Assembly: GCA_963795085.1 (NCBI GenBank)
Contig: CAWCFX010000001.1
Span: 288,001 to 352,000 of the forward strand
DNA from: an uncultured Gemmatimonadales bacterium
GTDB lineage: Bacteria > Gemmatimonadota > Gemmatimonadetes > Gemmatimonadales > GWC2-71-9
DNA: 64,000 nucleotides
Reading direction: 5' to 3'
The notes below the pieces were generated by a model, which saw only the letters and a program-made list of their open reading frames with translations, was not told the origin of the DNA and ran no database searches. Both the position numbers and the translations under genes were made by a program. Each line of letters begins with the position of its first letter. Position 1 is the first letter of the stretch. This document shows, piece after piece, positions 1 through 10,433 of the stretch.

Positions 1-2
1 TC

Positions 3-143
3 GCGGCGGTACAGGGGCTGGGCGGGCGGGAGTCGGTGCTGCTGACCGGAACGGCGGAGATCAAGGAAAGCGCGGAACGCGCGGCGGTGTTCGCGGTGCT
101 GGATGCCACCAACCGGTGGATCGCGGCGCGGCGGCCGAGCTAA
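3..143 (+). CDS. 3' end of a hypothetical protein (runs off window start)
   Basis: Open frame AAVQGLGGRESVLLTGTAEIKESAERAAVFAVLDATNRWIAARRPS ending TAA at 141-143; high-GC codon style. Confidence 0.6.
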   Translation, partial: AAVQGLGGRESVLLTGTAEIKESAERAAVFAVLDATNRWIAARRPS

Positions 144-343
144 GGCATAGCGGTACTGGCGAAAGTCATCGGCGAGTGCCGAGAAAGGAAAATGCGGGAG
201 GGGGCCCGATTGCAGGTCAAGGGAAGGAACTAGCGGACGAAGAGCGGGAAAATTGAGCGGAGCGTCTGGTAAACCTTAGCGGGGTTTGCCACTTCCGATG
301 GGAAACATCCACCTGAAGTCCCGTGTTAGGGGGTGACGCTCAA

Positions 344-409
344 ATGGTATCAGCTACGATCAGGTTTTTGATGAAGGTGTTGGGCGCTGGTGAGAACCAG
401 TCTTGGTAG
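344..409 (+). CDS. Putative 21-aa peptide MVSATIRFLMKVLGAGENQSW (candidate signalling peptide precursor)
   Basis: Read directly: ATG 344, TAG 407-409, SD-like AGGGGGTG at 328-335 (8 nt upstream); directly upstream of the HD-GYP gene; below the ORF-track length cutoff. Confidence 0.55.
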   Translation: MVSATIRFLMKVLGAGENQSW

Positions 410-463
410 CAAACTCGGGTCCCCACCCATTTTTCCGATAACGATTGTTTGGCTACGACACGA

Positions 464-1849
464 ATGCAGACACCTTCAAAGATAGCTGTTCTGGTCACCT
501 GTGTAACGGTTGCCGCCATCTTGGCAGCAGTCGTGTCGTCGGCTATGCCGGGTGGCGAGCCTGGCGGAGCATGGGAGATTGTTTGTTTCATCATAATTGC
601 CCTGATTCTTGAACGAAGTGGCACCTCGCTTCGGATCCAAGGCGCCGGTTCCACTGCCTTCATAATCAATATTTGTGCGGCCGTTCTATTTGGCGCCGGG
701 TGGGGAGCGTTGATCGCTGGCACCGCCATGGCGATTAGCCAGGTCAGTCACAAGAAGCCTCTTGTGAAGGCCTTGTTCAATACCGCTCAGATGGTGCTTT
801 CTATTGTTATCGCCGTCGCTGTCTACCAAGGTTTGGGCGGGTCAGTTCCACCCTCATATCTGTCCGTTTCCCAAGGCGTAGCTACTACTGCGGTGCAAAG
901 AGATTTTGCCCTCTTCTTCGTCTTGGCCCTGACTTACTTTCTAGTCAACTCGCTCCTGGTCAACAGCGCCATTGCGGTTGCCTCTAAACGAAATTTCATT
1001 GAGGTTTGGGGCGCGAATACGCGAGGTGTCATCGGCTATGACATGGCGGCCAGCGCGATATCTATGGTCATGGCCTGGCTGTTTGTCTATAGTCAGCAGA
1101 ACTGGGGCTTTGGCTCGATTGCCATACTTGCCGTTGTCTTACCTATCGCATTTGTTAGGAAGACTTACGGCATGTATCGGGGACTGGAGGCGACTAGTCA
1201 GGAGCTTCTAGAAGTGATGGTTAAGGCAATAGAGTCTAGGGATCCCTATACCTCAGGGCATTCGGAGCGAGTGGCGGCATTGTCTCGGGTAATTGCTCAG
1301 GAAGTCGGTGGCTTCAGCAAGGATGACGTAGATAAGATCTATAAGGCGGCTCTGCTTCACGATGTTGGCAAAATGTACGAGGAGTTCGCGCCTCTCTTAA
1401 GAAAGGAAACGAAGCTTACGCAAGAAGAGCGGGAGCTCCTTCAGACACATGCGGTGAGAAGTGCAGAGCTTGTTGGCATTGTATCATCCTTCAAGGGGAT
1501 GGTCCTGGAATCCGTAAGGAGCCATCACGAAAGGTGGGATGGCCGTGGTTATCCTAGCGGCATCGCAGGGGAATCGATTCCAATCGGAGCCAGGATTATC
1601 ATGGTTTCTGATACAATCGATGCCATGACAACCGATCGGCCCTATCGAAAGGCACTCGGAGTCGATGTGGTAATTGCCGAACTTCAGAAGCACCGCGGCA
1701 CACAGTTTGATCCTGTCTTGGTGGATCTAGTTATCGGCTCCGTTACCATACGGCGCTTGATTACGCTTTCTGCCGCAAGTCCCGCCGTCCAAGGCTCCAA
1801 GCAAGTGGACTTGATAAGGACCGGCCAGTTCCATCGCAAGGTCAACTAG
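464..1849 (+). CDS. Membrane-anchored HD-GYP domain protein (putative c-di-GMP phosphodiesterase)
   Basis: About 7-8 N-terminal hydrophobic segments, then RDPYTSGHSERV, LLHDVGK, HHERWDGRGYP, DAMTTDRPYRKAL; start ATG 464 or TTG 449. Confidence 0.9.
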   Translation: MQTPSKIAVLVTCVTVAAILAAVVSSAMPGGEPGGAWEIVCFIIIALILERSGTSLRIQGAGSTAFIINICAAVLFGAGWGALIAGTAMAISQVSHKKPLVKALFNTAQMVLSIVIAVAVYQGLGGSVPPSYLSVSQGVATTAVQRDFALFFVLALTYFLVNSLLVNSAIAVASKRNFIEVWGANTRGVIGYDMAASAISMVMAWLFVYSQQNWGFGSIAILAVVLPIAFVRKTYGMYRGLEATSQELLEVMVKAIESRDPYTSGHSERVAALSRVIAQEVGGFSKDDVDKIYKAALLHDVGKMYEEFAPLLRKETKLTQEERELLQTHAVRSAELVGIVSSFKGMVLESVRSHHERWDGRGYPSGIAGESIPIGARIIMVSDTIDAMTTDRPYRKALGVDVVIAELQKHRGTQFDPVLVDLVIGSVTIRRLITLSAASPAVQGSKQVDLIRTGQFHRKVN

Positions 1850-4800
1850 GGATTATTTTTCGGGCTGGCATAAATCCCAGTCGTTCCAGGAACTGTCCAA
1901 CCGCAGGAGGTAGCGTTTCCAGTTCTCTCCGTAGGATCTCCTCAAGGCCAGTCGTATCCTGCCCCAAATGATTTCCAGTAACTATGACGGCACATAGAAT
2001 CTCGGTACGGTCGATCCTGTCATAAGTGTTCCGATTCTCAAACATTTTCTGAAGGCGGGGCGGTGGCACTTCCTTCTTGGAATTGCTGCAAGCAAGAAAC
2101 GCGACCCATCTAGCGAAAAGTCCCGCTGTATTTGGGCTTTGCAAGCGTTCCAAGCTGCTTGAAGTAGCCGCCTTGGCGACTCCCATAGCTTCATGAGTCC
2201 TGCCCAAGAGCAGCAAGCAATCAGCTAAGAAGAGCAGGCAGTTCTGCCTGATACGCAAGCTGTCTGTTGTTCCGGCAATTTGTTGGAGTTGCTCAAGCAC
2301 AGGTCGGGTCTCACCTTCGCGCCCCAAGATGGCAGTCGCAACAGCACCGTGGTATAAGCAGTGCGACAGATCATCTGTCTTTCTGTGTCCGTCATGTTCC
2401 AGCGCGGCACCAAGCCACGTTACCGCCTCCCGGTATTGGCCGAGCCTGGTGGAGCATCGGACGAGATTCGCCGCGACCCTGCTGCTCATACGCTCGTTTC
2501 CGACATGTTTCGCAATAACGAAAGCACGATAATGATGGGCGGTAGCATGCTCGTAGCTGCCAACTGCGGCATGTATGTTTCCTAGTGCCTCATGCACGGC
2601 GACCGCAACGGTATTCGCGGAATGCCGATCATCCAATCTTTGGGCTGCACATTCAAGTTCCTGGATAGCCTGGTCTGTGCGGCCTGCATGATAGTGAAGG
2701 ATGCCGCTTGCAACGGTGACGGTCGCATAGTCTTCATCGCTTAGTATAAGCCCTTCAAACGACAAGAGGATACAGGCCATTTGCGTTGATAATGAGGGTA
2801 CAATGGGTACATACACCTGAAGATAGGCTGCACTCCTAAATGCTTGCACCCTAGTGGCAATGTTCGAATCAGCTTGGGCGATTCTCAAGAGATGAACAAT
2901 CAAATCGTCTGTTGAGTCAGCGCTAATTATGCTTAGCCTACGTTTTGCCTCCACTGACAACACGAAAGCGGCAGTTGCTCTTGGATCACTGGGTGAAATT
3001 GGTTGAGAGGATAATACCGCCAGCGTGTCTTCCCATCGACCTTGCTCATGTAGCGCTTCCGCCAGTAGTAGCTGTGCATCAGTCCTTTTAGGCTCCTTGA
3101 GATCACCAAGCGCAGTCACCAGCGCCCGCTCCGCCTCGTGCGGCGCCCCGTGCCGGATGGCTTCCCGCGCACCGCTTAGCAGGTAGGGCGTCGCCCGTTC
3201 CAGTAGTCCCCCGCGGATACAGTGCCATGCGATCTCCAGCCCCGGAATGCTGATCCCCTGCTGCTCCTGGGCCAGGAGCCGCTCGGCGATGCTCCGGTGG
3301 AGGGTGCGCCGCACCGGTGATGGCACCTGCAGGTACGCCTGACCCCGCACCAGCTCATTGCAGAATTCCAGCCCGCGGCCGCCATCCCGCAGGATCCGCA
3401 TGTCGGTCAGCTTGCCCAGCCCGGTCATGGTCTGGCCGATGGTCACGTCGGCCAGCGAGTACAGGTCAATATCGTTGACCCGCGACCCCAGGACCGACGC
3501 CATATTGAGGACGTTCCGCACCGATGGCTCCAGTCCCTGGACCAGGCGTTGCACGATCAGCTTGTAGGTGAGCGAGGGTCCGTCCGCCGTCCGGGGTTCC
3601 TCGGTCATGGCCCCGATTGAAAGAGCCAGGCACTGCTCGCCGTTGGTCTCCCAGTCCTGCACCAGGTACTCGAGCACCATGGGATATCCAGCCGAGGCAT
3701 GGAGCAGCGCTCGCCGGACCGCGGCCGAGGGCTGGGGCCGGTCGGACGGAAGCAGGATCACCAGGAGGTCATCGGACTCCTGGGGCGACATCGGAGGCAG
3801 GTCCAGGATCTGCATCCGAAGCGGTGCATGGCCTTCCCGGAGCCACGCGGCATGGGGAGACTGTCCCAGCTCCGCCGGACGGGCCGCGAGCAGGACCATG
3901 ATGCGCTGGTCCTGGGTCCGCCGCATGACCAGGTGGAGGACCGCCAGGCTGGCGTCGTCGGCGAGGTGGACGTCGTCGATAATCAGGATGACCGGATGCT
4001 CTTCCGCGATGGAAAGGGTGAGCTGCTGGAAGGCCTCCGTGAGCCGGAGCCGGGCGGTTTCCCCCTGGGTCTCCAGCGGGTCGGGAATCGAGGGATACCG
4101 GCGCCGGATCTCGGGGACCGTGCGGGAGAGTTCCGCCAGCCATTCGGGAGGTGTTCCCGAGACGCCGGGCCGGTCCAGCAGCCCCGCCACCAGCCCGGTG
4201 ATGGCGGCATAGGGAATCTCCCGCTCAACCTCGTAGCAGGACACCCGGCTGAGCGCCGCGCCCTCGAGCCCGGCCGCCGTGCCCACCCGCTCGATCAGCG
4301 TGCTCTTTCCCACGCCGGAGTCGCCCAGGACCAGGGCATGGTGAGGATAGCGGCGCATGGTATTCTCCCACGATTCATACAGCGCGCGATACTCCTCGGC
4401 CCGCCCGATGAACGGCCGGCCCCGCCACTGGTCGGTCGGCACGGTGGGGATATTGGTACTGACCGTCTCCCAGTCGCGGCGCCGGAGCCGGATGGCGATG
4501 CCCTCCACCAGCGGCGATGGCGTGGCATGCAGCTGCTCATCCAGTTTTGCCTTCCATGCCTCGTAGATCTTGAGCGACGTGAGCCGGTCGCCATCGAAGG
4601 CCCGCGCTTCCATGCGGGCCCGGATGCCGTCTTCGCTCAGTTCATCGATGTCCAGCAGGTTGTGGCCGATCGACTCGATCCGCTTGAAATCGCCGGTGCG
4701 GCGGCAGCGGTCAATCATGCGGACGAGGGCGTCCCGCACGACTGGCACCCAGCGGGCCCGCTGCCGGTCGGTCCAGAGCATGAATTCGTGGGCGTCGGCG

Positions 4801-5186
4801 ACCTCGAAATCCTGGAGGAATCCGCCGATCGCCAGGCCGGTCCGGAATTCGTCACCGAACAGATCGCCCGCGGCCAGCCGGTCGAGATCCAGCGTGAGGT
4901 TGATGGTGGCCAGGCGGAGATGGTCCCGGTCGCCCACCAGGACCTCGCGACCCAGCTTACCCCGGATCACCGAGGCCGCCGTGGCCAGGGAGTGGCGCCC
5001 TTCGTTGGGGGTGCCGGAGCCCCAGAGCAGGTCCGCCAGTTTCTCCCGCCGGTGGGGAATCCGCGGTTCCAGCGCAAGGTAGATGAGCAGGGCCACATGC
5101 TTCCGCACCCGGAATCGCACGGGCTCACCGCCGGGCGAAATCAGCTGAGGACGGCCCAGACAACGAAGATGATACGGCTGGCCCAT
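1842..5186 (-). CDS. BTAD/SARP-type transcriptional regulator with P-loop ATPase and C-terminal TPR-like repeats
   Basis: N-terminal LRCLGRPQL..ALLIYLAL..RREKLADLLW wHTH/BTAD; Walker A GDSGVGKS; Walker B IIDDVHLAD; GYPMVL; helical repeats at C-terminus; start set at ATG 5186. Confidence 0.85.
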   Translation of the reverse strand: MGQPYHLRCLGRPQLISPGGEPVRFRVRKHVALLIYLALEPRIPHRREKLADLLWGSGTPNEGRHSLATAASVIRGKLGREVLVGDRDHLRLATINLTLDLDRLAAGDLFGDEFRTGLAIGGFLQDFEVADAHEFMLWTDRQRARWVPVVRDALVRMIDRCRRTGDFKRIESIGHNLLDIDELSEDGIRARMEARAFDGDRLTSLKIYEAWKAKLDEQLHATPSPLVEGIAIRLRRRDWETVSTNIPTVPTDQWRGRPFIGRAEEYRALYESWENTMRRYPHHALVLGDSGVGKSTLIERVGTAAGLEGAALSRVSCYEVEREIPYAAITGLVAGLLDRPGVSGTPPEWLAELSRTVPEIRRRYPSIPDPLETQGETARLRLTEAFQQLTLSIAEEHPVILIIDDVHLADDASLAVLHLVMRRTQDQRIMVLLAARPAELGQSPHAAWLREGHAPLRMQILDLPPMSPQESDDLLVILLPSDRPQPSAAVRRALLHASAGYPMVLEYLVQDWETNGEQCLALSIGAMTEEPRTADGPSLTYKLIVQRLVQGLEPSVRNVLNMASVLGSRVNDIDLYSLADVTIGQTMTGLGKLTDMRILRDGGRGLEFCNELVRGQAYLQVPSPVRRTLHRSIAERLLAQEQQGISIPGLEIAWHCIRGGLLERATPYLLSGAREAIRHGAPHEAERALVTALGDLKEPKRTDAQLLLAEALHEQGRWEDTLAVLSSQPISPSDPRATAAFVLSVEAKRRLSIISADSTDDLIVHLLRIAQADSNIATRVQAFRSAAYLQVYVPIVPSLSTQMACILLSFEGLILSDEDYATVTVASGILHYHAGRTDQAIQELECAAQRLDDRHSANTVAVAVHEALGNIHAAVGSYEHATAHHYRAFVIAKHVGNERMSSRVAANLVRCSTRLGQYREAVTWLGAALEHDGHRKTDDLSHCLYHGAVATAILGREGETRPVLEQLQQIAGTTDSLRIRQNCLLFLADCLLLLGRTHEAMGVAKAATSSSLERLQSPNTAGLFARWVAFLACSNSKKEVPPPRLQKMFENRNTYDRIDRTEILCAVIVTGNHLGQDTTGLEEILRRELETLPPAVGQFLERLGFMPARKIIPS

Positions 5187-5520
5187 GAGGTTATTGCCCG
5201 GAGTGTCATCGGAAAAGTGCGGGTCCAGCCTCAACCAAGGATCAAACGCAAGCCCCGGAAGCGGTTGCGCCCTCATAGAGCGTGAACCAGAAATCGCGTT
5301 CTGTCCAGATGCGGATCCTTCAACCCCTTCGGCAAATCGGTTATCTTTGCCCCCGCTGAGGCATACCCATTGCAGCACGTTGGGGCGAGCTTCTGGATGG
5401 ACCTGATCCAGAGCCTCGGCCGAAACGGTAAGTCCAACAAATTCAACGCATTAACTGAAAGCCCCTGGGATACCCCGGGGCCCGACTGTCCCGTTCCTGA
5501 CCCTTGAGGAGTCTCTTCCG

Positions 5521-6420
5521 ATGCGCAAACTGCAAGCTGCTGGATTCGCCGCCGCCCTGGCCCTGTTGGCCGGAGCCTGCGGCAGCGACAACAACGATCC
5601 CGCGATCACCGATGAGCAGGGCGCCGCCATCGGCGAGGCCATCGCCTCCCAATTGGCGACCGCTCCCAGCAGCTTTACCGCGACGGATTTCACCGCCACC
5701 GCCACCGGCGGCGGAATCTTCTTTTCCCGGGGTGGCCTGTCCGTCCGGCGCCCCGCCGGCGGCCCGGCGCTCACCCTGCAGCCTCCCTGTGGTGTGCCGA
5801 GCGATCCCACCGACAGCGACCAGGACGGGGTGCCGGATGACGCGACCTATACCTTCCTCGCCGCCGACTGCTCCGGCCCCGGCTATGAAGTGACAGGCAG
5901 CATCCGGATCCAGGACGTCCAGGCGGCCGTGGGGTACATCGCCACCTATGCCAACTTCAAGACCACGTTCTTCGGGCAGGGCAATGAGTTCGTCTCGCTG
6001 GAGTTCGACGGCAGCCACGGGGTCTCCGGCAGCGTGTCGCTGGCGGCCCTGGCGGAAGACCTGACGGTGACCCTGTCCGCCAACCAGGGCGGGCAGAACT
6101 TCAGCGGTACGGTCAGCAACGACTGGTCTCTGAGCTTCGACGCCAGCAACGACGATCTGGCCATGGACAGCCCGCTGCCGGACGGATCGTTCGACATCAA
6201 TGGCAGCTTCGATTACAACATCAGCGGGACCCGCGCCGGGTTTGACATTACCACCGTGTCGCCGCTGGTGTTCGACTCGAGCTGCGGGCTGGATTGGCCC
6301 TTCAGCACCGGCGAGGTCCGGGCCCACCTGGTAGGAGAGGGCGCCAACGTGTATGCCAAGATCGTGTACACCGGCTGCGGCACGGCACCTGACGTGACGT
6401 TCTTCGGACGGAATTCGTGA
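5521..6420 (+). CDS. Hypothetical lipoprotein (beta-rich)
   Basis: SD GAGGAG; signal peptide with lipobox LAGAC. Confidence 0.8.
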   Translation: MRKLQAAGFAAALALLAGACGSDNNDPAITDEQGAAIGEAIASQLATAPSSFTATDFTATATGGGIFFSRGGLSVRRPAGGPALTLQPPCGVPSDPTDSDQDGVPDDATYTFLAADCSGPGYEVTGSIRIQDVQAAVGYIATYANFKTTFFGQGNEFVSLEFDGSHGVSGSVSLAALAEDLTVTLSANQGGQNFSGTVSNDWSLSFDASNDDLAMDSPLPDGSFDINGSFDYNISGTRAGFDITTVSPLVFDSSCGLDWPFSTGEVRAHLVGEGANVYAKIVYTGCGTAPDVTFFGRNS

Positions 6421-6612: not shown

Positions 6613-8277
6613 TTGCTCGTTCCTAAACTCTTCACCATGCTCCGGGGCTACACCCGGGAGCAGCTTATCGCAGACGCGATTGCCGGGGTGATTGTCGGCA
6701 TCGTCGCGCTCCCGCTGGCGATAGCATTTGCGATCGCCAGCGGAGTCCCGCCTGAGGCCGGCCTCATCACCGCCATTGTGGCCGGTTTCATCATCAGCGC
6801 CCTGGGTGGTTCCCGGGTCCAGATCGGAGGCCCCACCGGTGCCTTCGTGGTGATCGTCTACGGAATTGTCCAGGAATATGGGATGGACGGCCTCCGGGTG
6901 GCGACCATCATGGCGGGGATCATCCTGGTCTGTTTCGGACTGGGCAAGCTCGGCAACTACATCAAGTTCATCCCCTATCCGGTGACCATCGGTTTCACCA
7001 CCGGGATCGCCCTCATCATATTTTCCAGCCAGGTCAAGGACTTCCTCGGCCTTGAGATGGGGTCGGTCCCCGCCGATTTTCTGGAGAAATGGTCGGCCTA
7101 CGGCCAGGCGATCGGCTCCATCAACCCGAGTGCCGCGCTCATTGCCGTTCTCGCGCTTCTCATCATCGTGGTGTGGCCCCGAATCAACCGGCGGATCCCG
7201 GGACCTTTCATTGCGCTCCTGGTCACGACCGCGGTCGTTTACCTGCTCGACGTACCGGTCGAGACCATTGAGCAGCGATTCGGCGGCATCAATGCCCGGC
7301 TGCATCCACCCGAGGTTCCGGTTCTTACCCTGAGCGCGGTGACCAGCCTGGTGGGTCCGGCCTTTACGATTGCATTGCTGGCGGCGATCGAGTCCCTGCT
7401 GTCCGCCGTGGTCGCCGATGGAATGATTGGATCGAAGCACCGCTCCAACATGGAATTGGTCGCCCAGGGTGTGGCCAATATTGCCTCCCCTATCTTTGGG
7501 GGAATTCCCGCGACCGGCGCCATCGCCCGGACCGCCACCAACGTCAAGAACGGCGCCCGCACGCCGGTGGCTGGCATGATCCACGCGCTGACCCTGCTCC
7601 TCATTACGCTTTTCTTCGGTCGCTGGGCGGGACTGATTCCCATGGCGACTCTGGCGGCGATTCTCGTGGTAGTGGCCTACCATATGAGCGAATGGCGGAG
7701 CTTCCGTGCCGAGTTCCGGGCCCCTCGGAGCGATGTCATCGTCATGGCCACCACTTTCTCGCTCACCGTCCTGGTGGACCTGACCGTCGCCATCGAAGTA
7801 GGGATGGTACTGGCCGCGTTCCTGTTCATGAAACGGATGGCGGAAGTCACGAACGTGAGCGCGGTGACGGGCGATTACAGGGAAGAGGAGGAAGAGGAGG
7901 GCGCTGACGTCACTGGGACGTGGCGCCGCCCGATCCCGGAAGGGGTGGAAATTTATGAAGTGAATGGCCCCTTTTTCTTTGGAGCCGCCGAGTCATTCCG
8001 GGAAACGCTGAGCCAGGTGGCGGGAAAGCCTAAAGTGCTGATTATCCGGATGCGGAATGTCCCCGCGATCGATTCCACCGGGGTCCACGCCCTCCGCCAG
8101 GTGGTGACCAGGAGCCAGCGGGAGGGAATCCAGGTCTTTCTCTCCGACGTCCTGGCCCAGCCGATGTCAGCCCTTACCCGTTCGGGGCTCATCGAGGTGA
8201 TGGGGGAAGGGAATGTGCGCGGCAACATCGATGATGCCCTCGACGCAGCCCGCCGCCATGTGGGTCCCCCTCTCTAG
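6613..8277 (+). CDS. SulP/SLC26 family anion permease with STAS domain
   Basis: GVIVGIVALPLAIAFAIASG, GGSRVQIGGPTGAF, PATGAIARTATN; C-terminal STAS (GPFFFGAA, DSTG). Confidence 0.92.
   Translation: MLVPKLFTMLRGYTREQLIADAIAGVIVGIVALPLAIAFAIASGVPPEAGLITAIVAGFIISALGGSRVQIGGPTGAFVVIVYGIVQEYGMDGLRVATIMAGIILVCFGLGKLGNYIKFIPYPVTIGFTTGIALIIFSSQVKDFLGLEMGSVPADFLEKWSAYGQAIGSINPSAALIAVLALLIIVVWPRINRRIPGPFIALLVTTAVVYLLDVPVETIEQRFGGINARLHPPEVPVLTLSAVTSLVGPAFTIALLAAIESLLSAVVADGMIGSKHRSNMELVAQGVANIASPIFGGIPATGAIARTATNVKNGARTPVAGMIHALTLLLITLFFGRWAGLIPMATLAAILVVVAYHMSEWRSFRAEFRAPRSDVIVMATTFSLTVLVDLTVAIEVGMVLAAFLFMKRMAEVTNVSAVTGDYREEEEEEGADVTGTWRRPIPEGVEIYEVNGPFFFGAAESFRETLSQVAGKPKVLIIRMRNVPAIDSTGVHALRQVVTRSQREGIQVFLSDVLAQPMSALTRSGLIEVMGEGNVRGNIDDALDAARRHVGPPL

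Positions 8278-9419: not shown

Positions 9420-10433
<1,014 letters not shown>

Follow-up and report, generated by a model that had tools for sequence, protein, structure and literature searches.

In the genome of an uncultured Gemmatimonadales bacterium (GenBank assembly GCA_963795085.1), the beginning of a 64,000-nucleotide (nt) stretch of contig CAWCFX010000001.1 (positions 288,001 to 352,000, here called the window) contains a compact cassette in which a micro open reading frame (micro-ORF) precedes the gene for a predicted membrane phosphodiesterase of the MASE9-HD-GYP type, followed by a convergent gene for a large putative transcriptional regulator with a TPR sensor end. Three properties of this cassette recur in related loci. 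First, the micro-ORF is a genuine coding gene for a hydrophobic peptide of 16-37 amino acids (aa) that ends in A-[E/D]-x3-W followed by 0-1 residue. Second, its leader mRNA carries a covarying hairpin together with a long-range helix whose 3' end lies immediately ahead of the HD-GYP start. Third, the peptide, the MASE9 domain, and the TPR end of the regulator form a fast-diverging block of low guanine plus cytosine (GC) content, the parts of which diverge in a correlated manner and along a tree unlike that of the flanking sequences. Conservation, RNA covariation, and block-wise evolution stand on solid ground; for the function of the peptide, we can only propose an explanation from the sequences compared. 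The conserved locus has the following gene order: a cyclase with iron-sulfur (Fe-S) and GGDEF domains, a 246-aa protein, the leader with the micro-ORF, the MASE9-HD-GYP enzyme, and the convergent SARP-type STAND-TPR regulator. Within the window, its elements lie as follows (SD, Shine-Dalgarno; GC3, GC at third codon positions).

1..143, + strand: 3' end of the conserved gene for the 246-aa protein (full gene L046:9404-10144, ending at window position 143), adjoining the cassette and syntenic
188..216, + strand: 5' arm of the long-range RNA helix (uninterrupted core 200-209; partner 407-437, core 415-424)
231..264, + strand: 7-nt direct repeat in three copies (231-237, 242-248, 255-261), near-invariant columns in the alignment of 74 leaders
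268..290, + strand: leader hairpin P2 (RNAalifold), with a stem of 8 base pairs (bp) and a conserved loop of 7 nt
291..296, + strand: anti-SD stretch, predicted partner of the micro-ORF ribosome-binding site (helix P3, four predicted pairs)
329..341, + strand: micro-ORF ribosome-binding site (strong, purine-rich, 329-336) and 3' strand of helix P1, near-invariant in the 74 leaders
344..409, + strand: micro-ORF for a hydrophobic peptide of 21 aa (P0001) with C-terminal E-x3-W, identified by ORF call, conservation, and coding signature
407..437, + strand: 3' arm of the long-range helix (core 415-424), between micro-ORF stop and HD-GYP start, from the duplex test
449..1849, + strand: gene for the MASE9 (about aa 43-235) and HD-GYP (aa 255-423) protein, an ORF of 466 aa by Pfam domains, with start TTG 449 or ATG 464
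1842..3116, - strand: TPR sensor end of the regulator (about aa 754-1178), low in GC3 and hypervariable, delimited by a GC3 change-point
3117..5186, - strand: conserved high-GC part of the regulator, with winged helix, BTAD-like region, and STAND NTPase (AAA_16), from Pfam and profile matches

The Micro-ORF and Its Peptide

A sequence-only reading of this DNA had pointed to a 21-codon, Trp-ended ORF with a good SD sequence at 344-409 and had asked whether such an ORF always precedes the HD-GYP gene. The ORF is confirmed, and it is kept in homologous loci. An SD-led ORF of 21-27 codons, with the same ribosome-binding site, stands before the HD-GYP gene in all 12 loci of relatives, its stop codon being separated from the HD-GYP start by about 35-70 nt in most of them. 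A scan with one genome per species gave 80 loci, 72 of which bear Gemmatimonadota names (several of them Gemmatimonas sp.), while six carry names of other taxa and lie, each of them, on a contig of at most 5.4 kb. Of the 80 loci, 69 include 200 nt or more of upstream sequence, and a strict rule (SD sequence, 14-45 aa, and a Trp within the last three residues) holds in 59 of the 69, as against 2 of the 69 reverse complements and 44 of 1380 shuffled sequences. Nine of the ten loci that fail the strict rule have an SD-led hydrophobic ORF of 19-29 aa in which the Trp lies further in or is absent, bringing the overall count to 68 of 69.

The reading frame also bears the mark of coding sequence. In 13 pairs of micro-ORFs having equal length and 70-99% nt identity, the differences at codon positions 1, 2, and 3 number 65, 42, and 103, respectively, and codons with a single difference are synonymous in 67 cases and non-synonymous in 27. 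The 78 peptides that could be collected have a median length of 23.5 aa and a median hydropathy of +1.05. Their last Trp is followed by no residue in 19 and by one residue in 48 (together 67 of 78), the whole range being 0, 1, 2, 4, and 5, and three peptides have no Trp; an acidic residue occupies position W-4 in 41 of the 78, Ala being the most frequent residue at W-5. All three stop codons are used among these micro-ORFs. The same-genus genome G002 encodes a longer peptide with a final five-residue pattern identical to that of the window peptide, and BLAST found no second copy of the leader and ORF in the genome of the window itself.

The Phosphodiesterase and the Convergent Regulator

The same reading had described the product of the next gene as an HD-GYP protein with multiple transmembrane segments, a description that can now be made more precise. 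Its multi-pass N-terminal region matches Pfam MASE9 (PF20972) with 38.1 bits against a cut-off of 24.3, and it is the sole MASE9 gene in its genome (39.5 bits in the genome search); the rest matches HD_5 (PF13487) with 118.8 bits against a cut-off of 27.2 (E=2.7e-34). The HD and GYP motifs are intact, since H304-D305, H359-H360-E361, D364, and G367-Y368-P369 are invariant in 12 orthologues. By its sequence, therefore, the enzyme is an ordinary member of the MASE9-HD-GYP type and predicted to be a phosphodiesterase for cyclic dimeric GMP (c-di-GMP). Those who defined MASE9 proposed that it binds a ligand within the membrane, and their preprint names one poorly expressed Streptomyces protein as the sole member studied (bioRxiv 10.1101/2021.11.05.467447).

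The stop codons of the HD-GYP gene and of the regulator share 8 nt (1842-1849) in convergent orientation, exactly as first noted from the sequence. The regulator frame is open on the minus strand over 1842-5378, but homologues align from residue about 60-70 onward, and hence the ATG at 5186 is the probable start. As to its architecture, the ATPase and TPR parts of the proposed BTAD-ATPase-TPR order are borne out by Pfam (AAA_16, 84.3 bits; TPR_19, 42.3 bits), whereas the BTAD match is sub-threshold (18.1 bits vs a cut-off of 22.1) and the N-terminal profile also touches designed TPR proteins in this region. A profile built from 20 regulator N-termini matches the winged helix of EmbR over residues 15-88 (E=1.1e-7). 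Judging from these domains, the protein fits the architecture of large SARP regulators, namely, an OmpR-type winged helix, a STAND NTPase, and TPR repeats. In its AlphaFold2 (AF2) model, the TPR end is an all-alpha superhelix of 21 helices (pLDDT 94) for which the best Foldseek matches include Rap (apo and peptide-bound, among them phi105 Rap with peptide), LGN, domain III of MalT, and further TPR proteins that bind peptides, with template modeling (TM) scores of 0.4-0.6 that are generic for TPR superhelices. No column of this part is invariant among 58 homologues.

The linkage of the HD-GYP gene with the regulator, on which the initial proposal depended, is nearly general. Within the family of the window organism, full-length relatives of the regulator show 39-54% identity, and a fragment from the same genus shows 72%. 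An HD-GYP homologue lies convergently behind the regulator in 13 of 19 loci of these relatives, one of the 13, L027, coming from the unpublished genome G018. Over the larger set, 74 non-duplicate loci extend 3 kb or more past the HD-GYP gene, and 72 of them have the convergent regulator. Where the regulator is full-length (66 cases), its stop codon overlaps that of the HD-GYP gene in 29 and is no more than 60 nt away from it in 53. Loci L096 and L119 have kept the micro-ORF and the HD-GYP gene, with no regulator homologue within 4.9 kb downstream.

Four other loci (L036, L039, L049, and L069) have a fragmented regulator frame, with open frames of 731, 831, 457, and 805 aa, respectively, and further matching pieces behind these in some of them; decay of the TPR end or assembly error may account for this.

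The Leader of the Peptide mRNA

An elaborate cis-regulatory structure in the peptide mRNA had been missed by the sequence-only reading. The alignment of 74 leaders shows three near-invariant 7-nt repeats, a hairpin, and a likewise near-invariant ribosome-binding site, to which a pyrimidine stretch upstream is complementary. Repeat copies 1 and 2 are spaced 10-11 nt, while the third copy doubles as the 5' strand of helix P1; we infer that the repeats are protein-binding sites. Between window positions 231 and 282, the repeats and the hairpin loop form a run of (G/U)AG triplets about 2 nt apart, which we take to resemble the sites of TRAP-like RNA-binding proteins, and by this analogy the repeats could be sites in RNA instead of DNA.

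Covariation among 23 family-level leaders supports part of the fold. RNAalifold predicts 17 pairs, seven of which show compensatory double changes, and all seven lie inside the 8-pair stem of hairpin P2, where G-U pairs are frequent. In helix P3, formed by the anti-SD stretch and the ribosome-binding site, three of the four pairs vary on one side only and the remaining one shows a single double change; the masking of the ribosome-binding site by the upstream stretch is a prediction with which these changes are consistent, not a proven structure. The pairs of the outer helix P1, being invariant, are uninformative.

The second element spans the whole micro-ORF. A region lying just after the 246-aa gene pairs with a region that begins 0-8 nt past the first base of the micro-ORF stop codon. 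For 73 loci, the mean duplex energy is -40.8 kcal/mol between cognate arms, -31.2 kcal/mol between non-cognate arms, and -30.2 kcal/mol with shuffled partners (standard deviation 6.4), and in 10000 permutations of partners the mean of the cognate arms was never reached. Among cognate pairs, 51 of 73 contain an uninterrupted helix of 10 bp or more, as against 146 of 575 non-cognate pairs. The sequences that form it differ widely between clades. In distant loci, inspected by eye, the G-rich core of the 3' arm lies about 13-17 nt before the HD-GYP start, which has no obvious ribosome-binding site at the usual distance.

Other devices were sought around the micro-ORF with negative results. The 62 nt past its stop codon fold no better than shuffled sequences (mean z +0.3, 79 loci), indicating no stable local fold there, and a scan of window positions 1-2200 with consensus patterns found neither a terminator nor a promoter near the micro-ORF. 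Attenuators of the trp or tna kind have a terminator or Rho site that responds to the position of the ribosome right after the ORF, where no terminator-like site is seen here. Scanning window positions 1-700 against Rfam gave no match at E<=1.

A Low-GC Block with Its Own History

The GC content of the window is about 0.47-0.57 from position 144 to about 3000 and 0.65-0.71 beyond, with values of 0.527 for the HD-GYP gene, 0.519 for the C-terminal part of the regulator, and 0.679 for its N-terminal part. Residue 754 of the regulator (about window 3116) marks a drop in GC3, which is 0.81 before it and 0.50 after it. That a single low-GC block would comprise the peptide, the HD-GYP gene, and only the TPR end of the regulator was thus correctly recognized from the sequence, and the pattern is not peculiar to this genome. 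In nearly all loci, the MASE9, HD, and C-terminal regulator parts have a GC content of 0.50-0.64, as compared with about 0.65-0.75 for the 246-aa gene and about 0.6-0.75 for the N-terminal part of the regulator. Among 67 full-length regulator genes (one duplicate record included), the median GC3 change-point corresponds to residue 724 of the window protein (interquartile range 625-790), mean GC3 being 0.79 before and 0.62 after it. A single horizontal transfer into the genome of the window can be rejected as the cause, for the drop recurs in nearly all loci, including that of the same-genus G002. Low expression is also disfavored because the boundary in the middle of the gene recurs across the phylum; such a recurrence would fit a diversifying module in which exchange has occurred repeatedly or recombination is suppressed.

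The same parts diverge fastest, as is evident from the identity to the window protein found within the family.

246-aa gene: 59-79%
HD domain: 57-69%
Regulator, N-terminal part: 35-62%
MASE9: 26-52%
Regulator, TPR end: 22-33%

Close pairs of loci show a similar profile in their nt identity, with 75-92% for the flanks, 71-83% for the HD domain, 41-61% for MASE9, and 32-65% for the TPR end. One pair, L061 and L062, has identical peptides, a p-distance of 0.06 in MASE9, and a difference of 7% in the regulator N-terminus, and yet 56% in the TPR end.

Does the peptide change together with the proteins encoded beside it? Partial Mantel tests on 27 hand-picked loci with all four genes complete, controlled for flank distance, correlate the peptide with MASE9 (r=0.45, p=0.0003), the TPR end (r=0.43, p=0.0003), the HD domain (r=0.35, p=0.0003), and the regulator N-terminus (r=0.15, p=0.064), the p-values being only a rough guide and not probabilities, because the permutations ignore relatedness. 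The co-variation originally predicted for the peptide with the membrane and TPR domains is thereby recovered in part: it holds for MASE9 and the TPR end once flanks are accounted for, and not for the regulator N-terminus, but it fails for the TPR end in the L061/L062 pair. None of the three outcomes named beforehand as refuting the proposal, namely, loss of the small ORF from homologous loci, an HD-GYP gene and regulator unlinked elsewhere, or absent co-variation, was observed. The likewise predicted exchangeable block is real and general, and its tree conflicts with that of the flanks: the flank alignment rejects the block tree (difference in log likelihood 331; approximately unbiased [AU] test, 1e-7), just as the block alignment rejects the flank tree (230; AU 4e-64). 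Model error may contribute to this conflict, since the trees come from fast searches under LG+G4 and the TPR part is near saturation. The block tree groups L038 with L060, which has a similar peptide, contrary to the flank tree; the identity profile of these two loci shows no very recent transfer of the cassette between them.

Two same-genus assemblies have contigs that end inside the block (G004:C105 and G002:C171; L024 and L127), one at regulator residue 427 and the other at HD-GYP residue 299, which might reflect strain heterogeneity at the locus or mere chance. Four public DNA sequencing runs yielded short pieces of contigs at low depth, which carried no information on alleles.

What the Peptide May Do

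These observations create a puzzle: why should a phosphodiesterase gene be preceded, over a whole phylum, by a tiny coding gene in so structured a leader? The explanation that we favor, tentatively, is that the peptide serves as a ligand or small-subunit partner of the MASE9 sensor, made together with the phosphodiesterase from a gated mRNA, with the regulator controlling the unit. On reaching the end of the micro-ORF, a ribosome would open the long-range helix at its 3' arm, and the synthesis of peptide and phosphodiesterase would thus be switched on together; because the terminating ribosome would cover this arm, translation of the micro-ORF and the clamp would be mutually exclusive. Transcription starting downstream of the 5' arm in dependence on the regulator would instead produce an unclamped, active mRNA. 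The peptide would then act in trans on MASE9 and set the rate of c-di-GMP hydrolysis, while the regulator would use its own variable TPR sensor to control the unit at the level of transcription, perhaps by binding the three direct repeats. MASE9 is favored over the TPR end as the partner for four reasons: the micro-ORF and the HD-GYP gene are physically paired throughout; L061 and L062 combine the same peptide with a conserved MASE9 and a diverged TPR end; L096 and L119 keep peptide and HD-GYP gene without a regulator; and the partial correlation with MASE9 is slightly higher.

Several points weigh against this explanation and need to be set beside it. The peptide correlates almost equally with the TPR end and the HD domain, and the correlation, the significance of which is only roughly gauged by the Mantel permutations, may come from linkage, shared rate, or shared history of the block alone. 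Many of the peptides would be unable to span a bilayer as a classical helix, since just 10 of 78 have an uncharged stretch of 18 residues or more and the shortest measure 16 aa. The RNA architecture could by itself account for a translated ORF at this position. Moreover, a partner acting inside the cell leaves the hypervariability and the low GC unexplained, unless recognition is under diversifying selection.

An alternative closer to the initial proposal is signaling of the RRNPP kind, in which the peptide would be exported, perhaps trimmed to its acidic-x3-W end, re-imported, and bound by the TPR end of the regulator, which would then activate transcription in response to a quorum or kin signal. 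The TPR superhelix is modeled with high confidence, its best matches including Rap with and without peptide, phi105 Rap with peptide, and domain III of the STAND sensor MalT; given the flanks, the peptide correlates with this end (r=0.43); and the peptide is similar to SHP and ComS in being short, leaderless, and hydrophobic, in keeping an acidic residue, and in its aromatic C-terminus. The three conserved direct repeats before the peptide gene, two of which lie one helical turn apart, would make a positive feedback loop conceivable, SARP proteins being described as binding direct repeats at 11 or 22 bp spacing (PMC10936776). Yet the fold matches are generic, the TPR ends of L061 and L062 differ by 56% around the same peptide, no invariant TPR column offers a conserved groove for the conserved peptide end, and two loci retain the peptide without the regulator. 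RRNPP receptors (Rap, NprR, PlcR, PrgX, and ComR/Rgg with SHP or ComS) have an Xre-type helix-turn-helix or a phosphatase domain and no NTPase, whereas the protein here combines a SARP winged helix, a BTAD-like region, and a STAND NTPase and shows no sequence relation to them; on this domain evidence, the system is not a member of RRNPP. The conserved locus is also devoid of an exporter, peptidase, or oligopeptide permease, in line with what had been remarked for the window, namely, that no gene for processing or export is visible. What the model supports is a TPR fold of the peptide-binding type; the mechanism as a whole we regard as unlikely.

About as doubtful, in our judgment, is the opposite possibility that the micro-ORF works only in cis. 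Its translation would open the long-range helix and unmask the HD-GYP start, or the nascent chain would stall in dependence on a small molecule, the released peptide having no function. The 3' arm begins 0-8 nt downstream of the stop codon's first base, just ahead of a start with no obvious ribosome-binding site at the usual distance; this position fits the possibility, as do the predicted masking of the micro-ORF's own ribosome-binding site and the concentration of residue conservation at the C-terminal end. Arrest peptides, too, have their most conserved residues at the C-terminal end. However, coupling of this sort needs no conserved peptide, while here hydrophobicity and motif are kept phylum-wide and synonymous changes outnumber the others by 67:27; the Trp is followed by a varying number of residues and three different stop codons are used, unlike the geometry of stalling; no stable local hairpin or terminator lies behind the ORF (mean z +0.3); and co-variation with protein domains is unexpected for a cis device. 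Because the peptide mRNA carries such elaborate cis-regulatory structure, the micro-ORF may nevertheless act in cis to some extent, and a coupling role in cis and a peptide role in trans are not mutually exclusive.

A further proposal, to which we likewise give little credence, combines the exported peptide with the membrane enzyme: self or kin recognition would be wired to c-di-GMP, with lineage-specific cassettes that are kept diverse by selection and exchanged between lineages, and with a peptide that is read at the membrane by MASE9, as phosphodiesterase activity, and in the cytoplasm by the TPR end, as STAND-dependent transcription.

Still less probable is a domesticated membrane peptide resembling type I toxins, with an mRNA silenced by end-to-end pairing and a masked ribosome-binding site and released under stress signaled by the regulator. 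The mRNAs of hok and aapA1 have a masked ribosome-binding site and a long-distance interaction, and the small hydrophobic peptide, the predicted masking, and the long-distance mRNA clamp found here are similar. In contrast with mobile, multi-copy type I loci, however, the cassette is single-copy and syntenic over a phylum, integrated with neighboring protein genes; the peptide co-varies with sensor domains encoded beside it; and no gene for an antisense RNA was seen, though no search for one was made.

Finally, the idea of a phage-sensing module, in which the hypervariable TPR of a STAND protein would recognize a phage protein in the manner of Avs and switch on peptide and phosphodiesterase as effectors, is very improbable, for although the hypervariable sensor, the low-GC block, and the STAND-TPR architecture recall such systems (PMC13581612 describes STAND proteins that bind phage proteins through TPR sensors), PADLOC gave only generic HD and TPR matches, the chromosomal context beside the conserved cyclase is fixed and not a variable island, and the effector domain is a DNA-binding SARP domain.

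Comparison with Known Systems

By its pattern of variation, the cassette would be most like the agr (AgrD/AgrC) and comQXP (ComX/ComP) cassettes of Firmicutes. There, too, the gene for a short peptide lies beside that for a polytopic membrane sensor, rapid joint divergence affects the peptide and the sensor domain but spares the output domain, and the block has its own history, with the same proviso that linkage alone could give the correlation. The differences are equally clear: the output here is an HD-GYP phosphodiesterase instead of a histidine kinase, the locus contains no equivalent of AgrB or ComQ, the organisms are Gemmatimonadota, the block includes a second hypervariable sensor in the TPR end of the STAND regulator, and the peptide mRNA is heavily structured. 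No dedicated processing or modifying enzyme is found among the conserved neighbors, which are the GGDEF cyclase, the 246-aa protein, the regulator, and, in some loci, a lipoprotein.

The regulator itself has its counterpart in large SARP proteins of the AfsR type (SARP-NOD-TPR), which have winged helix, BTAD-like region, STAND NTPase, and TPR in the same order, as outlined in PMC10936776, and with which it shares direct repeats one helical turn apart near its putative target. It departs from them in phylum, in its convergence with a c-di-GMP phosphodiesterase gene (72 of 74 loci), in its hypervariable TPR end, in the GC3 break within the gene, and in a BTAD match below the Pfam cut-off. MgrB with PhoQ, SafA, and AcrZ provide a different parallel, being tiny hydrophobic proteins encoded next to a membrane sensor or co-regulated with it, but they are longer, form a full transmembrane helix, and are not hypervariable, whereas many peptides here are too short to span the membrane.

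Searches of the literature on MASE9, small proteins associated with HD-GYP, quorum sensing in Gemmatimonadota, and SARP-STAND-TPR proteins brought up no account of this locus, of its peptide, or of the RNA element. To our knowledge, no ligand of MASE9 and no inducer of the TPR sensors of large SARP proteins are known, and peptide signaling cassettes, which are textbook matter in Firmicutes, are barely known elsewhere. The cassette is a conserved and testable candidate for a link through which a peptide encoded by its own gene would be joined to a membrane c-di-GMP phosphodiesterase and to a STAND regulator, in a soil phylum that is widespread yet little studied. It may be an undescribed switch from peptide to second messenger, to which an undescribed structured mRNA element with clear covariation is added. 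Were the peptide to act only in cis, this element would still gate the translation of a second-messenger enzyme in a new way. In evolutionary terms, the persistently low GC and its boundary in the middle of a gene offer a clean case in which the maintenance of polymorphic sensor modules could be studied.

Genes around the Cassette

Further genes of the window lie beyond the regulator, as listed below.

5521-6420, + strand: lipoprotein gene, signal peptide with lipobox, no Pfam family; divergent from the regulator
6613-8277, + strand: SulP/STAS anion transporter, following the lipoprotein gene
9420-10433, - strand: MoxR-type AAA ATPase, likewise following

The SulP and MoxR genes are not syntenic with the cassette in other loci (for SulP, 0 loci). 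Upstream of the cassette, two genes are syntenic. A search of 92 loci found the 246-aa gene before the cassette in 71, many of the remainder lacking upstream DNA, and it was detected in 209 of 301 sampled genomes of the phylum, the 301 including two unpublished ones (G082 and G176). Its protein is the most conserved product of the locus (59-79% identity within the family) and has no Pfam match at E<=10. The AF2 model (pLDDT 86) has an N-terminal domain of alpha-beta-beta-alpha-beta order and a C-terminal double beta-beta-beta-alpha domain similar to the regulatory domain with which LeuA and citramalate synthase bind amino acids; on the basis of this model, the protein may be a small-molecule-binding partner within the c-di-GMP cluster. 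Further upstream, at L046:7604-9316, lies the cyclase gene, syntenic in 37 of the 92 loci, which fuses GGDEF to 4Fe-4S ferredoxin and Fe-hydrogenase-like domains. In view of this combination of Fe-S and GGDEF domains, the locus probably pairs a redox-sensing cyclase with a peptide-linked phosphodiesterase. On the other side of the cassette, weak homologues of the lipoprotein lie beside the regulator in 10 other loci.

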